From Alkalispirochaeta sp. (lineage in GTDB: Bacteria; Spirochaetota; Spirochaetia; DSM-27196; Alkalispirochaetaceae), in the NCBI GenBank assembly GCA_965601925.1, contig OZ271854.1, positions 4,544,001 through 4,608,000 on the forward strand: a stretch of DNA of 64,000 bases, read 5' to 3'. A program made the position numbers. This document shows positions 42,001 through 48,000 of this stretch, piece by piece (position 1 is the first letter of the stretch; each line of letters starts with the position of its first letter).

Positions 42001-45000
42001 GGTCGAAACACGCCGCGTCGCGATCCGTCGCGAATGATCTCGTCGACGATCGCCTCGATGCGCCGGCTGAGGGAGCCGATCGCGCCGCTTTGCAGATCGA
42101 ATCCGGGGTAGAGAAAGCGCTCGTCACCGGAGAGCACACCCCGGAGGATAGGATAACGCTTCATTCCGAGAACCGCGAACTGATACAGCACTTTGAGCTT
42201 GTTCATCGGCGATCGCAGCCGTTTCACCATTCGTTCGAGCTTGTGGATTCCCTCACGTTCGATCAAACTAAGAATTTGCTCGTAGAACATCTCTTTGCTG
42301 GAGAAGTGCTTGTAAAATGTGCCGACGCTTAAGCCGCATCCCCGGACGATGTCCTCGACCGATACGTCGCGGTATCCGTGGCGCGAAAAGAGCTCCATCC
42401 CCGATCGAATGATAAGAACCCGACGGTTTGCCTTCATGAAGTACCATTATATCCGTACGCCGCCTGCGGCAGAAGGACAAAGTGAAGATCGTCCTCGATT
42501 ATTCACATATCGAATAATATTTCTTTGTCAATTTTTATCACGCCAGCATCCGTTTTTGTCTCTATTTCGCCGCATCTCCGTTACGTTCCCGTTAATCCTC
42601 ATACCGTTCATTGACCGGAGGCAGCGGCGTGGATTACGACGTATATAAGAGGACTTATGGGCGACACACTCGTTACATACCGTAAGGGCACCGCTCACTA
42701 CCACCTCCGATGCTTGGCGACCGGGCAAATACTCAGAGACAACAGCCACGATTCGACGACGCGTTTTCCATTGGCGTGTTCGTCGGCGACGACTCCCGCA
42801 CTCCTGCGCACCGAGTATCGGAACACGCGCCTCGAGGTCGGCGACGAAGACGAGGGCGTTTTTCGATTTGCGTCGTGGTTACCCGTTAACACTACGTTAC
42901 CCGGTGCCGGGGGCCCGGTCACCTACCGCGCCGAGGCACTCGGTCGAGATCTCGGTCTAAGCAAGTTGTATGTGACCTTCAGCGGATGGTGGCCCGAGCG
43001 GCGCGCGCGCATCCCTACCGGCACCTTCAAAGAGAACGAGGCGTACGCGGTATACGGTCGTATGGGCGAGGCCGCATACGAACAGACGCTCGTCGTCGCC
43101 TCGGCGGGCAATACTGCGCGTGCGTTCCTGAGAGTTGCGGGAGAGAACAATTTGCCGCTGGTCGTCGTGGTCCCGGAGAATAATATCCCCGACCTGTGGA
43201 CGGTCGGAGAGCGGGGCTCGTCGACGCTCGTCGTAGCTGCCGGCGAGGACTCGGACTACGGCGATGCGATCACACTCGCGGCTCTCTTGTGCGAGGTCCC
43301 GGGATACGTTGCCGAGGGGGGTGCAAAGAACGTCGCACGTCGCGACGGAATGGGTACCACTTTTCTTTCGGCCGCGCACGCGATCGGACGCATACCGGAC
43401 CACTACTTCCAGGCCGTGGGAAGCGGAACCGGCGCGATCGCCGCGTGGGAGGCGAATCGACGTCTCATTGAGGACCGCCGGTACGGAGGTCACCACGCCA
43501 AGCTCCACCTCGCGCAGAACGCACCGTTTCAGGTGCTGGTGGACTCGTGGCGAGCGCGAAGCCGGGAGCTCCTCCTCCCCGACGAAGCGGTCACGCGTCG
43601 TCAGGTCGACGAGATCGGCGCCAAGGTGCTCGCGAACCGCCGTCCGCCGTGGTCGATGATCGGCGGTCTGTTCGATACACTCGTCGACACCGACGGCGAA
43701 ATGTACGCGGTGACCAACGACGAGGCCGAAGAGGCCGGCGATCGCTTCGAAGAGCTTGAGGGTATCGATCTCAGCCCCGCCGCGCGAGTCGCGTGCGGCG
43801 CGTTAACGCAGGCTGTACGGAAGGGAGCGGTCGGACGCGACGAGGTCATAAACCTCAACGTAACCGGCGGAGGCTTCCGAAGGGCGAAGCAAGATCTCGA
43901 CACCCGACCGCTCGAGGCGGATGTCGTGGCGCACCGTTCCGCGTTCAATACCGAGGCGATCGCCGAGATGGTGGACAGGGCTCGACGAACGCGCTTGAAT
44001 CAACGAGGATAGTAGTAGTAGCCATTACTCATACCATTGTCACGGCGACGATCCCGTATCGACTACCGAATACGGCGCCGGACGTCAAAAAAAAGTAGAG
44101 ACAATACCGCGACGACGCGCATACTCGTCGAATACTAAAGGAGATCTACGATGCTTTTAGACCAAAAGGCGGAACGCGAAAGCGCCGCAAAGTCCGAGGG
44201 AAAGACGGACCTCTTTGCGAAATGTCATACCGATGCGGGGTACTTCGGAAAGCTCCGCGCAATGGGAGACGATGAATATACGCGCCCGGTTCTTCCGCCC
44301 AATCCCGATCGACACATGGAGTTCAAAGGTAAAGAGCACACCATGTGGTCGATCAATAACTATCTCGGCCTTGCCAACCACCCCGAAGTGATCGAGACGG
44401 CCCACGACGCTATCGACCGCTTCGGTGTGAGCTCTCCCATGGGTTCGCGTATGATGAGCGGCAACACGGAGCACCACCTCTCTTTCGAGCGCCAGCTCGC
44501 CGAGCATACGGAGAAGGAGGCGGCGTTCCTCTTCAATTACGGCTACATGGGCGTCATCGGCACCATTCAGTCCTTGGCGGGTAAGGACGATGTCATCGTC
44601 ATGGACAAGCTCGACCATTCATGCATCGTCGACGGCGCCTTTCTCGGGCAGTCGATGAACGGCGCCCAGCTGCGCGTCTTTAAGCATAACAATATGGATA
44701 ACCTCGAGCAGGTGCTCAAGCGGGTCAACCGTGACCGCAAAGGCGGTGTGTTGATCGTCACCGAGGGCGTCTACGGTATGACCGGCGACCTGGCGAAACT
44801 CGACGAAATCACCGCTTTGAAAGAGAAATACGACGCCCGACTCTTCATCGACGACGCCCACGGCTGGGGCATTATGGGTCCCGAGGGCAAGGGAACCGCG
44901 GCGCACTTCGGCGTTCAGGACAAGGTTGACGTTTACTTCGGCACCTTTGCCAAGAGCTTTGCCTCCATCGGCGGGTTCTCGTCCTCCGAGCAAGCGGTAA

Positions 45001-48000
45001 TCGACTGGATCGCTTACAACGCGCGCACCCAGGTCTTTGCCAAGAGCCTCCCGATGGTATACGTCGAAACGTTGCGTAAGACCTTCGATCTGGTAAAGGC
45101 GGGCGACGATCGGCGCGCCAAGATGTGGGCGCGAAGCAACGAGCTCAAAAACGGTCTGCGCGCCTTGGGCTTCTACATCGGTCCGGGCGAGTCGCCGATC
45201 TGTTCGGTGTTTCTCCCCGTGGGCGAGCACGAGCCGGAGCGTATCGCTATGCAGTCCGCCGGCTTCCTACGCCAACACGGCGTCTTCGTGACTGCGATCG
45301 TCTACCCGGTTATTCCCCTCGGGCTTATGATGTTTCGCATGATTCCTACGGCGATGCACGAGGAAGAGGATGTGCAGAAGACGTTGGCTACATTCGAACA
45401 GATGCGAAACGCCCTCAACCTCCGCCTCGATATGACCGAGGACGAAGACAAGACGATCCGCAAGGTATACGGGATATAGTACTCATCGGCCTGCGAGGCG
45501 GAGAGGCATGTGCCCTCTCCGTCTCGGGTCCGGTATCCGCCCGCATGATGGCTCGCGGAAGTAACCACGGCACCTCGCACCCTCTTCATGCAAGATAACG
45601 GTTGCCCGACACACCGGATCGTGTTACACCGATAGGACCGCCGGTATGGAAACCGACGGCATACTTCACGTACCGGGGGCGGCCGTGGTCGGAGGCGAAA
45701 CGCAACTCATTCGGAACCTATTGTTTCTCCCTCTTCTCATTGCGTTGACCTCTCCGGTTGTCGGAGAAACGCCCCGCACGACGACCCGTGTCCTCCAGGA
45801 CGGCACGACAATACTAGAAACGCGCGATGAAACGGACCGTTTACTCCGAGAGGAGGTCGTTCTCAGAAACGGAAGACACAAGACGACCTATTTTGACGGC
45901 CGCGGAGATCCTCACTATAGCGTCGTCACCACCGGAACCGGCTCGTTCGGCATCATGTACTATGAGGAGTCCGAGGCGCCGCTTTTCAAGTTCTGGCATT
46001 ACGGCAACGATGAGAAAATCATACAGTTTCACTCGGACACGTTTGATTTGATCGGATCGATCGAAATCCAAACTGACAACGCCGAACGCCGCGTCGTGTG
46101 GAGTGAGGAAACGAACCGCGGGAGTAAGGCGATGATATGGATACCCGTGTCATTCCTCGCCGGTGCGCTCTTTGCTTTCCTTCTCGTACGTACGACGACA
46201 CAAAAAACGTCGAAATCTCGCAGATAGTCGGGGCGAGACTATCGCGAAGACCGGAGACGTAGTGTGCGGTCTCCTCTTCGAGAGATGTCGTAATCCCGTT
46301 CCGGCGGTCCGACATATTGACCGCTTCGTTCCCTCATGGAGCAAGCGGCACAGCAACGATCGTCCAAGCCTAATTTCTGCTTTTTAAGGCTTCGTAGAAC
46401 GTGATCCATTCTTCGGTGGGATTCGTCATGAATCCGGCGAAGTCCGGGTCGGTTTCCACTCTATGAATACGCCTCCGCGCCTCGGGATGATCCATGGCCT
46501 CCAGGGTCAAAAGGAAGTTACGGGCGCTTCGCATGTCACCCTCAAGAGCGCTGGCGCAAGCCGCGTTGTAGGCCGCACGAAAATGCAGGGGATTCCAAAA
46601 CAGGGCCGACGCAAAGATGGGCGCAGCTTCGTCGAACCGTTCTCGTTCGTACAGACTGAACGCCGCTTCATTCAGAAACTGTGCGACGAATGGGCCGCTG
46701 AGGATGGCCGCCACGGTTCTTCCCGGATCAGAGCTGTGAAACTCCCGAAGAAAGAATGTAAGCACCAAGTATCGAGGAGACTCCGAACCCAAAAGGGACG
46801 ATACGTCGTCCCCGGGGTAATAGAGATCCAGGACCTCCGTATAGTCCTCGCGGACACCGAAGCTATGGTGATTGAAGGTGCCCAGTCGCTTTGTCCAGCC
46901 GGAGGTCTCCTCCCTGATGGAGAGATCGACCATTTCCAGAACCGGAAAAAACGGGTCATCGCGGTTGCCTTGATCGAGCACCTCTCCGGATCGACCGACG
47001 GTCGGATGCTCCTCAAAAGATCCCGTCAATCCCATGTACGATTCCGCGTGCGTATAGGAGCCGACGACGCGTTGGAGAATCTCCGAGGCCGATTGCCGTT
47101 GCGACTCCAGTTCCTCTTCCGTCGGGGCCACGGTCCGATCGGAAACAAATTCATTGAGAGAGATGTAATACACCTCGCTGTCGCCGTCGGGAGAGAAGAA
47201 GCTCATGTATTCATCTCTCCCGCCGAGTCCTTCGTAACGCGTGTGCATCCGAACGACGAGCCCCCCGTCACCGGTCACATCGACGGAATCTATGCGGTCG
47301 GGGCCGATAATACTGATCTCCGGGATCTCTTGAGCAGCTGCGGCAGAGCAGCCCAGCAACAGCAGTATAACGGTACGAAACGGAAAAGAAGAACGCATAA
47401 CTCACCCCCTGAACGATTCTTTCGTCCTGCACCATATCGAAAAAGCGCTTGTATCGACGCGCTCTCCCGTCGTCCGGCCGACCTCGAAAACCGCATCGTC
47501 GAACGGAATCCCCGGTAGTGGGTCCCGAGTTCGTTCTTCTCTGTACATCGATGGGTTTCGCGAATTCATCTTAGGTGGGCGAGAAAGACGTGTCAAACAA
47601 AACCATGGGTGTGACGAACCGACGAAGATAATCCGTATCGAGAACACGGCGGAGGACGCTCTACATGAGAATCTCGGCCTCGCCGACGCGACGTTGTCCA
47701 CCCGACACCAACACGGGCTCGATAATCGTCGGAGTACGTCCCTCGATCTCGCCGATACGGTCGAGAAGGAGACGTCGCAACCGCTTTCGCACAGGCGTGT
47801 GCGAATCGTAATGAACCAAATTTTCCAACTCATACGGGTCGTGGAAGAGGTCGTAGAGGTACATCTCCGTATACTCTGCGGCATACTCCGCTGAGGGACG
47901 GCCCGCGGGGTCACGCGGGTCGACATAGGCGACTCCGTACTTCCAACGACGGGTACGCACAGCCCGCCCGGTCTCCGCTTCGCTCACCTGGACGAAGACG

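Follow-up and report, generated by a model that had tools for sequence, protein, structure and literature searches.

Sulfonolipid synthesis in bacteria appears limited to Bacteroidota, as passages of a 2023 review state and as the initial annotation had reported (PMC10191378), and every cysteate:fatty-acyl transferase (CFAT) in the table of a 2026 structural paper comes from that phylum (PMC13692747). The closest described systems are SulA of Alistipes finegoldii (PDB 7U7H; PMC9304779), in which Lys281 distinguishes the enzyme from serine palmitoyltransferase (SPT), and CapA-CapB-CapC of Capnocytophaga and Ornithobacterium (PDB 28EH, 28FA; PMC13692747; pathway according to passages of PMC10191378). 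An archaeal-type cysteate synthase is reported for Alistipes and Odoribacter in passages of the same review, and the basis of cysteate specificity is left open by PMC13692747. Two further systems serve for comparison, namely the cysteate synthase of coenzyme M synthesis in Methanosarcinales (TIGR03844; PDB 9K3C) and the SPT of Sphingobacterium (PDB 3A2B/8GUH; NF047600).

Here a spirochaete locus is described, in which a cysteate synthase gene adjoins a CFAT-like gene. Judging from active-site residues, from the order and co-occurrence of the genes and from the sulfite-supply genes that relatives keep in their operons, the pair very likely joins cysteate and an acyl thioester into 3-ketocapnine for sulfonolipids. 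Among the literature matches listed, none described these genes or lipids in spirochaetes, in line with the initial annotation; the phylum names in figures of PMC11211663, PMC11525784 and PMC11334938 may include Spirochaetota. The occurrence of sulfonolipids outside Bacteroidota, as first proposed, is supported as a reading, though it has some precedent: 13 or 21 phyla and one Firmicutes_A genome are listed by loose homologue screens, and a lipidomics paper describes ceramide sulfonates in Candida albicans.

The gene pair and its products

The window, a stretch of 64,000 nucleotides from an Alkalispirochaeta genome, contains the features listed in Table 1. Both open reading frames lie where the initial annotation had placed them and are intact; they are separated by 138 bp, and each is preceded by a purine-rich ribosome-binding site. 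At the place of the candidate operon promoter, relatives show TTGACA...TATACT. The promoter is graded as weak, since a consensus scan returned nothing above chance and did not list it.

Table 1. Features of the locus, in window positions
Feature	Position	Strand	Basis
TetR-family regulator, divergent from operon	41787..42437	-	PF00440, E 5.4e-15
23-bp imperfect palindrome TGAAKATY-N7-RWTATTCA, probable TetR operator	42483..42505	.	motif scan of window
Possible sigma-70 promoter of operon (TTGACC, 18 nt, TACGAC)	42611..42640	+	by eye
Cysteate synthase, archaeal (threonine-synthase-derived) type, 451 aa; PLP lysine K125 by alignment	42657..44012	+	matches to TIGR03844 and PDB 9K3C
Cysteate:fatty-acyl transferase (CFAT/CapB/SulA-like alpha-oxoamine synthase), 442 aa; PLP lysine K268, SulA-defining lysine K298	44151..45479	+	sequence, tree, model

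The first gene very probably encodes an archaeal-type cysteate synthase, predicted to form cysteate from O-phosphoserine and sulfite. Its product passes the curated TIGR03844 cut-off (467.1 bits versus 324.9), and at E <= 1e-8 it matches a single PDB entry, 9K3C, named 'Cysteate synthase' (E 1.3e-114); in a control search with TIGR03844, only Methanosarcina acetivorans exceeded the cut-off. The sulfite-supply genes of relatives' operons give the predicted reaction indirect support. The synthase is of the same type as in the SulA system, and differs from CapA in being threonine-synthase-derived rather than CBS-like. Among 151 sampled genomes of the Bacteroidota phylum the archaeal type was found in one, which had no CFAT match. 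A role in coenzyme M synthesis was rejected, since sulfopyruvate decarboxylase ComD (TIGR03845) was not found at E <= 0.001 in this genome, which is 96.7% complete; unlike in Methanosarcinales, the partner gene is an acyltransferase.

The product of the second gene is, by sequence, an alpha-oxoamine synthase whose closest matches are the cysteate acyltransferases CapB and SulA. The E-values of the initial annotation were reproduced exactly, with CapB (28EH, 6.5e-110) as the best sequence match, followed by SulA (7U7H, 2.2e-105) and SPT (8GUH, 7.6e-71), and the residues it had named are present, as N69, G131-Y132, H156, C158, K268 and K298 in QVFAKSL. The predicted structure (pLDDT 88.9) has the same fold as SulA, its best Foldseek match (7U7H, E 1e-45, TM 0.86 by query), and shares with it the PLP lysine of fold-type I alpha-oxoamine synthases (K250/251, here K268) and the equivalent of Lys281, at about 43% identity. 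The lysine at 280/281, an alanine in SPT, is K298 in the window protein and is found in all 30 other spirochaete rows of the alignment. It also occurs in the distant, uncharacterised relatives P0126, P0128, P0132 and P0137, and is therefore not proven sufficient.

Out of 18 COCFAT residues lining the cysteate pocket (PMC13692747), 15 are identical in the window protein (N52, G81, G114, Y115, H139, C141, E187, D216, H219, F245, T247, A249, K250, F278 and K280), while each of the three that differ (A82S, F113Y, M277V) is also seen in rows of the Bacteroidota CFAT clade. At the 23 positions swapped to SPT residues in the same paper, read by hand, the protein carries the CFAT residue in 13 cases, the SPT residue in 6 and another in 4. 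The six SPT-like sites, in the pocket or the second shell, are A82S, S120G, H149G, S246G, A257G and I357V, and set the protein apart from CapB. Since CFAT and SPT residues are thus mixed, the spirochaete enzymes offer a natural test of cysteate specificity.

With Sphingobacterium SPT the protein shares fold and reaction type at about 33% identity, but it scores below the cut-offs of the SPT models (NF047600, 298/640; NF047599, 284/500; NF047603, 231/670 bits), of the KBL and BioF models (NF005394, 299/460; TIGR01822, 258/493; TIGR00858, 307/426 bits) and of the ALAS model. Besides this protein, the genome encodes a single alpha-oxoamine synthase, which shares 58% identity with a KBL scoring above the KBL cut-off.

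Distribution and ancestry

In order to count acyltransferases in the order, rows of at least 53% identity were kept and paralogue rows of 32-38% were dropped. The acyltransferase was found in 63 of 99 genomes, the synthase in 66 and both in 57; in 52 of these 57 the two genes stand side by side, always in the same order. These counts overstate the association because kin are not independent. The pair is thus more strongly conserved than first noted, and far above chance. Its attribution to free-living spirochaetes may be too narrow, since the acyltransferase persists in five genomes with sizes of 1.4-2.3 Mb. At the level of the class (Spirochaetia), 81 of 301 genomes carry it. In a sample of 251 genomes of the phylum the acyltransferase was detected in 20 and the synthase in 21, with both in all 20 and neither in 230. 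Co-occurrence does not reflect linkage only, since the two genes are unlinked in 15 of these 20 carriers.

Exceptions occur in both directions. An acyltransferase without a detected synthase was seen in 6 of 63 genomes of the order and in 3 of 5 checked elsewhere, two of them single-contig; no CapA-type synthase exceeded the cut-off in four such genomes checked. Conversely, in genus g18 there are five genomes in which the synthase stands beside ArsR and permease genes and the acyltransferase is missing. These exceptions, the six SPT-like residues and the label glycine C-acetyltransferase, given by JGI to many homologues, would suit linked genes with separate ends, the acyltransferase working like SPT, BioF or KBL on an ordinary amino acid and cysteate going to coenzyme M, taurine or sulfur storage. 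We consider this very unlikely: the protein falls below the cut-offs of all three families, the genome has its own KBL and no ComD was found in it, co-occurrence in the phylum sample is near-perfect, and a distinct SPT-like gene, accompanied by reductase and ceramide-synthase-like genes, exists in many relatives; in the tree the SPT-like genes of spirochaetes belong to another clade than the acyltransferases.

The acyltransferase had been assigned to the CapB/SulA clade, which the trees do not bear out: the spirochaete (SH-aLRT 98) and Bacteroidota (100) sequences form separate clades, the Bacteroidota clade being anchored by L055 (E 4.8e-183 to 28EH) in place of the six assayed CFATs. The two are sisters with support 1.0 in FastTree, and the IQ-TREE mixture-model quick tree leaves their branching order unresolved; identity between spirochaete acyltransferases and Bacteroidota CFATs is 40-46%. 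As the spirochaete clade stands apart, substrate choice is something we infer, rather than a property inherited from an assayed clade member. A recent transfer from Bacteroidota is not supported, since in neither the FastTree nor the IQ-TREE quick tree are spirochaete sequences nested among those of Bacteroidota. They make up a single deep clade that spans 21 families of the class plus 6 from other classes, and in several families the module is kept beside rny or hepS, so that the module looks old in spirochaetes rather than recently imported.

All 23 named spirochaete loci come from MAGs, and cluster look-ups for a cultured carrier named no isolate. If about a quarter of sampled Spirochaetia make sulfonolipids, capnine lipids would be unfit as markers of Bacteroidota in sediments, brines and guts, and their role would not be tied only to gliding.

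Sulfite supply, regulation and proposed pathway

The genes are scattered in Bacteroidota and clustered in spirochaetes, where synthase and transferase are adjacent, unlike in the SulA-type system, and often accompanied by cysDN, cysH, tetR and a VOC gene; adjacency is shared with CapA-like genes in 6 of 30 Bacteroidota loci. This clustering provides new candidates by guilt of association, namely a regulator with its operator, sulfite supply, the VOC protein and a ketopantoate-reductase-like gene. New here are the divergent TetR with a conserved 23-bp palindrome and the link between a two-domain VOC protein and the acyltransferase.

Runs of cysD-cysN-synthase-acyltransferase on one strand were found in eight genomes (G277, G331 and 6 of 20 wide regions examined). 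Directly after the acyltransferase, cysH is found at L021, L024, L027, L028, L030, L159, L160, L221, L228, L232, L234, L236, L237, L238, L241 and L251; three of the relatives' cysH genes exceed the TIGR02055 cut-off. Given the cysD-cysN runs and, in many, cysH, the cluster appears to supply its own sulfite. The genome studied here has a CysD over the cut-off, an adjoining CysN and a PAPS-reductase-family gene.

A TetR homologue is present in 20 of 29 loci, and still adjoins the acyltransferase at six loci lacking the synthase (L005, L010, L011, L012, L019, L025). It is the probable regulator of the operon, with the palindrome as its probable operator. Read on both strands, the motif marks one site in the window, where 0.15 matches are expected at 2 mismatches and 4 of 100 shuffles reach 2. 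It was found at the locus in 10 of 10 genomes examined, 9 of which (all but G036) are among those from which the motif was read, and is the sole site in 7. Operator-like sites also lie ahead of an unlinked cysH-like gene in G694 and of the acyltransferase in G663. The operator was discarded as a route to the reductase: the second strong site of this genome (C1:2352016) precedes a xanthine-dehydrogenase-like operon, not a lipid gene.

The two genes would form the entry module of capnine-type sulfonolipid synthesis, for which the chemistry of each step is taken from PMC9304779, PMC13692747 and passages of PMC10191378; acyl donor, last two steps, regulation and lipid production itself are what we infer for spirochaetes. 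Direct observations are the gene identities given by family models, the residues, the gene order and co-occurrence, and the palindrome. Sulfate would be activated by CysDN and reduced to sulfite by CysH, and the synthase would replace the phosphate of O-phospho-L-serine by sulfite, giving L-cysteate. The acyltransferase would then condense cysteate with a long-chain acyl-ACP (or acyl-CoA), with loss of CO2, to 3-ketocapnine, which an unlinked reductase and a ceramide-synthase-like N-acyltransferase may convert into a sulfonated ceramide analogue for the cell envelope. The module would be controlled by TetR on the palindrome.

Later steps and the VOC protein

That the ketoreductase (CapC) lies outside the locus agrees with the initial annotation: no reductase was found there and, unlike in the CapA-CapB-CapC system, no CapC is assigned. 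SDR and epimerase queries from relatives match many genes of this genome at 24-48%, with no clear orthologue and none singled out. The gene of 800 bp that in relatives lies between the acyltransferase and the VOC gene is not an SDR, being cysH in family f10 and a transposase-like ORF at L016 and L018.

As for N-acylation, Bacteroidota CFATs have a GNAT-like gene nearby, and in family f4 a gene with 35-38% identity to it follows the acyltransferase at a distance of about 4 kb (4 of 5 genomes). The GNAT-like gene is presumably 'bacterial ceramide synthase-like', a label suggested by its place beside SPT-like and CFAT genes. In this genome the candidate is a diverged gene at C1:197368-198510, 20% identical to the Bacteroidota query and 37% to its same-genus orthologue; no family model or structure named it.

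Neither reductase nor N-acylase is fixed at the locus, and in families f25, f38 and f56 a ketopantoate-reductase-like gene is the neighbour instead. Moreover, the sole non-spirochaete member of the separate spirochaete clade joins fatty-acyl-AMP ligase, ACP and acyltransferase in one fusion protein, an arrangement typical of dedicated acyl loading; a Rhodothermaceae record belongs to its cluster. The enzyme might accordingly use cysteate with an acyl donor, or towards an end product, unlike those of Bacteroidota capnines, such as a short or unusual chain, a sulfonated amino alcohol that is free or not acylated, or a small product for secretion, reshaped by the VOC protein. This seems unlikely, considering that ceramide-synthase-like genes occur in 71 of 99 genomes of the order, and near the acyltransferase in f4, that Bacteroidota scatter their reductases too (sections of PMC11211663), and that retention in the small genomes mentioned above suits a structural lipid.

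In 52 of 61 genomes the VOC gene is a direct neighbour of the acyltransferase, and in Bacteroidota the protein was found only together with the acyltransferase (29/29). The structures that come nearest to it, PcpA dioxygenase (Z 24.1, rmsd 3.1 over 277 aligned positions) and plant glyoxalase I (Z 22.9, rmsd 3.1 over 261), share 10-14% identity with it and name no function; an Atlas look-up returned unnamed VOC clusters only, and no link between the protein and sulfonolipids was found among the literature matches listed. This metal-binding protein may be a missing part of the pathway. More tentatively, sulfonolipids could be old and widespread in spirochaete envelopes, produced by a self-contained regulon that leads from sulfate to capnine and has a TetR of its own. 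The VOC protein, which travels with the acyltransferase in both phyla, would be an unrecognised metal-dependent enzyme of the pathway, most probably an isomerase or epimerase that works on the 3-keto intermediate alongside the reductase; many such spirochaetes would also have sphingolipids, against a proposed mutual exclusion.

In this genome the acyltransferase and the VOC gene, adjacent in relatives, lie about 60 kb apart with other genes in between, and the ceramide-synthase-like gene is diverged, as would be expected if the module worked in relatives and were decaying here, with little or no finished lipid. Such decay is quite improbable: the relocation breaks no transcript, because the VOC gene is convergent to the acyltransferase in relatives, and both reading frames of the pair, tetR, the palindrome and the VOC gene (80% identical to its orthologue) are intact.

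Cysteate synthase and acyltransferase genes of the window

The initial annotation had described an archaeal-type cysteate synthase next to an acyltransferase closer to CapB and SulA than to serine palmitoyltransferase (SPT), and both descriptions hold. The synthase scores 467.1 bits against TIGR03844, the model of the archaeal-type enzyme (curated cut-off 324.9), and at E <= 1e-8 it matches a single PDB entry, 9K3C, which bears the name cysteate synthase (E 1.3e-114). The acyltransferase ORF follows after 138 bp; its top PDB matches are the cysteate:fatty-acyl transferases (CFATs) CapB (28EH, 6.5e-110) and SulA (7U7H, 2.2e-105), then SPT (7.6e-71), exactly reproducing the earlier values. 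In profile searches it falls below the cut-offs of BioF, KBL, ALAS and three SPT models. Its AlphaFold model (pLDDT 88.9) retrieves 7U7H at the first Foldseek rank; since SPT and KBL folds rank close behind, the fold by itself is not decisive. The only other alpha-oxoamine synthase of the source genome is KBL-like. Upstream, rny, ymdB and tlyA lie beyond the tetR gene. The closest named loci, at 77-83% identity, belong to MAGs labelled Alkalispirochaeta or Spirochaeta sp.

Positions of the features discussed. Unprefixed positions count along the window; C1 is the contig of the source genome, L numbers are loci of other genomes.
Feature	Position	Strand	Basis or remark
Cysteate synthase ORF, intact, 451 aa	42657-44012	+	TIGR03844
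CFAT-like alpha-oxoamine synthase ORF, intact, 442 aa	44151-45479	+	PDB matches, family models
TetR gene	41787-42437	-	family match; divergent from the pair
Palindrome	42483-42505		tetR-operon intergenic DNA
Two ORFs without family	45646-46227, 46370-47398		within about 60 kb after acyltransferase
Sulfatase	47661-49055		within about 60 kb after acyltransferase
VOC gene, source genome	C1:4649233-4650291		outside window, 60 kb downstream
VOC gene, other loci	L035:7387-8508; L053:7233-8294
Degenerate VOC gene, genus g17	L196:4985-6031; L197:5466-6512		beside rny
CysD (over cut-off) with CysN, source genome	C1:1713286-1716128		unlinked to operon
PAPS-reductase-family gene, source genome	C1:4704015-4704920		unlinked to operon
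GNAT-like gene, source genome	C1:197368-198510		diverged copy
Further operator-matrix match, source genome	C1:2352016-2352038
Ketopantoate-reductase-like gene	L068-L082, L161, L164, L165
Clusters with another alpha-oxoamine synthase	L209:3169-13486; L212:2147-12524

Lys281 is the residue separating SulA from SPT in the accessible text of PMC9304779, and the pocket of a cysteate-bound structure is listed in that of PMC13692747. Compared with the latter list (COCFAT numbering), the window protein keeps N52, G81, G114, Y115, H139, C141, E187, D216, H219, F245, T247, A249, K250, F278 and K280 (N69 to K298 in its own numbering), so that the residues initially named (N52, G114-Y115, H139, C141, K250 and K280) are all in place; its differences, A82S, F113Y and M277V, each occur too in Bacteroidota sequences of the CFAT clade. 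Two observations speak against the match. At the 23 positions swapped to SPT residues in the accessible part of PMC13692747, types read by hand from alignments are CFAT-like at 13, SPT-like at 6 (A82S, S120G, H149G, S246G, A257G, I357V) and neither at 4. The K280 lysine is present also in distant proteins of untested activity.

Phylogeny and distribution

A FastTree phylogeny of 91 sequences places the clade of Bacteroidota CFATs as sister to that of the spirochaete enzymes, with SPT- and KBL-like sequences elsewhere in the tree. Both clades hold in a quick IQ-TREE tree of 60 sequences under a mixture model (SH-aLRT 98 and 100, respectively), in an open fork with three further sequences. The Bacteroidota clade is anchored by the protein of L055 (E 4.8e-183 to 28EH), the experimentally tested CFATs themselves being outside both trees. 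Because the clades are separate, the assignment to the CapB/SulA clade was too strong: the pocket is the same, and the spirochaete enzymes are neighbours of that clade rather than members. The trees give no sign of a recent import of the spirochaete acyltransferase. One non-spirochaete sequence lies inside the spirochaete clade, P0121, a fatty-acyl-AMP-ligase/ACP/acyltransferase fusion whose cluster includes a Rhodothermaceae record; P0121, P0123 and P0125 are all fatty-acyl-AMP-ligase/ACP/alpha-oxoamine-synthase fusions keeping the K280 lysine.

Among 99 genomes of the order, the acyltransferase (at least 53% identity, a few sequences fragmentary, paralogues at 32-38% excluded) was found in 63, the synthase in 66, both in 57 and neither in 27. 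The two genes adjoin, synthase first, in 52 of the 57, which confirms the conserved pair initially proposed. Of 301 class genomes with a completeness of 90% or more, 81 have the acyltransferase, spread over 21 families. An evenly drawn phylum sample of 251 genomes yielded 20 with the acyltransferase and 21 with the synthase, all 20 acyltransferase carriers having both; 19 of these belong to other classes and 13 to a single family, so that few are independent cases. The acyltransferase is absent from several large families among the genomes searched (0/24, 0/37 and 0/36 in the phylum sample; 0/31, 0/31 and 0/17 in the class sample), and is kept in five genomes of 1.4-2.3 Mb. The synthase was not found in six order genomes and three of five others tested that have the acyltransferase, two of them single-contig, and no CapA over cut-off was found in four such genomes tested. 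In genus g18 (L192-L195) the synthase occurs without the acyltransferase, its neighbours being ArsR, thioredoxin-like and permease genes; it may be a relic or may put cysteate to a different use. The sole archaeal-type cysteate synthase among 151 genomes of the Bacteroidota sample (L258, genome G459) occurs without a CFAT match there.

Sulfite supply, regulation and the VOC protein

Cysteate synthase requires sulfite. The order cysD-cysN-synthase-acyltransferase on one strand is found in eight genomes (G277, G331 and six of 20 wide regions), and cysH directly follows the acyltransferase gene at 16 loci (L021, L024, L027, L028, L030, L159, L160, L221, L228, L232, L234, L236, L237, L238, L241 and L251); in genome G274 it is divergent from the synthase. 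All three cysH genes tested pass the APS-reductase cut-off. With sulfate-activation genes, a cysteate synthase and an acyl-condensing enzyme in one run, any purpose other than sulfonolipid synthesis is difficult to propose, and the putative sulfite-supply genes are the strongest new support for that reading. The conserved module is real and very probably serves sulfonolipid synthesis. In the source genome the candidate sulfate genes lie elsewhere, and a profile search found no ComD.

A palindrome, TGAAKATY-N7-RWTATTCA, lies in the tetR-operon intergenic DNA and recurs with at most 2 mismatches at 25 of 30 loci examined. All 10 whole genomes examined have it at the operon locus, 7 of them as the sole site; 9 of these 10 had served to derive the motif. 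A reversed control pattern occurs in 1 of the 10. Second sites precede the acyltransferase gene in G663 and an unlinked cysH-like gene in G694. By analogy with the family, TetR is predicted to bind the palindrome. In the source genome an equally good match to the operator matrix lies upstream of a xanthine-dehydrogenase-like molybdoenzyme operon, at a distance of 160 bp.

The recurrent gene after the acyltransferase encodes a two-domain VOC (glyoxalase-fold) protein of 350 aa; proteins labelled Bacteroidota or Rhodothermales share 53-61% identity with it. Of the 63 acyltransferase genomes of the order, 61 have the gene and hold 61 of the 65 strong matches; in 52 of the 61 it lies within 3 kb of the acyltransferase gene. 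Among 151 Bacteroidota-phylum genomes CFAT is found in 54 and the VOC gene in 29, all with CFAT; it was not found in the other 25 CFAT genomes, two Mucilaginibacter among those tested, nor in 3 of 19 spirochaetes of other classes. A Saprospiraceae MAG, G490 and the spirochaete G274 carry it after CFAT and in the same orientation, and in a three-record cluster (P0404) it is joined in one protein to an NAD-dependent extended SDR. Across 47 sequences, residues Q11, E72, H259 and E310 vary little or not at all; we take this four-ligand Gln/Glu/His/Glu site to be of the glyoxalase I/methylmalonyl-CoA epimerase type, not that of a dioxygenase. A functional link of the protein to sulfonolipids appears probable from these patterns; that it acts directly on a capnine intermediate, as a candidate missing enzyme, is a more tentative suggestion. 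VOC-hepS genes adjoin the acyltransferase in relatives, unlike in the source genome, where about 60 kb of other genes, among them oxaloacetate-decarboxylase-like genes and transporters, intervene (window 45480-64000 and on to C1:4649233). Genus g17, which has lost synthase and acyltransferase, retains a degenerate VOC gene with the invariant residues partly changed.

Published reports and later steps

Passages of a review (PMC10191378) state, as initially cited, that sulfonolipids appear to be made in Bacteroidota only; they add that this synthesis may be exclusive of sphingolipids, and attribute the archaeal-type cysteate synthase to Alistipes and Odoribacter. The CFAT paper PMC13692747, whose Table S1 holds CFATs from Bacteroidota only, is indeed silent on spirochaetes in its main text, from which 'spiroch', 'VOC' and 'glyoxalase' are all absent. 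Loose homologues are reported in 21 phyla, with one prioritised Firmicutes_A genome, in PMC11525784, no spirochaete being named in the accessible parts of it and its eight supplementary files, and, as loose homologue sets, in 13 phyla in passages of PMC11211663. Excerpts of PMC11334938 predict SPT-like genes in 38 phyla and name neither spirochaetes nor cysteate. Ceramide sulfonates are given by mass for Porphyromonas, Prevotella and Candida, not for Treponema denticola, in passages of PMC11052126; those of PMC13286283 list unidentified polar lipids for cultured Alkalispirochaeta, and those of PMC12927429, PMC4045070 and PMC3516359 hold nothing further on spirochaetes. Our literature search found no report of these genes, of the module or of sulfonolipids in spirochaetes. 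Related sulfonolipids are made by Salinibacter and the diatom Nitzschia alba. The chemistry is already known; what is new is a separate enzyme clade, operon plan and regulator, and a candidate extra enzyme.

No reductase is constant in the spirochaete loci compared, in keeping with the initial placing of a CapC-type ketoreductase outside the locus; Bacteroidota likewise have none fixed there (PMC11211663, in part). Families f25, f38 and f56 have a ketopantoate-reductase-like gene transcribed away from the acyltransferase, a candidate there for a 3-ketocapnine reductase that would belong to another protein family. Of 30 Bacteroidota CFAT loci, 4 have a GNAT-like gene nearby, presumably ceramide-synthase-like in view of its gene context. 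It has homologues in 71 of the 99 order genomes, and in 4 of the 5 family f4 genomes the homologue lies some 4 kb downstream of the acyltransferase.

A separate SPT-like gene, for which NF047600 is the best model at 488-497 bits (below the cut-off of 640), occurs in many relatives and is absent from the source genome. Since most such loci have a reductase and a ceramide-synthase-like gene alongside, these relatives may make sphingolipids alongside sulfonolipids. SPT-like loci of the same order are L206, L207, L208, L210, L211, L216 and L217, several carriers also having the cysteate acyltransferase. At L209 and L212 another alpha-oxoamine synthase is clustered with ketosynthase, HMG-CoA-synthase-like, enoyl-CoA-hydratase-like, SDR, dehydratase and ceramide-synthase-like genes, labelled by reading the sequences, as a possible beta-branched lipid cluster.
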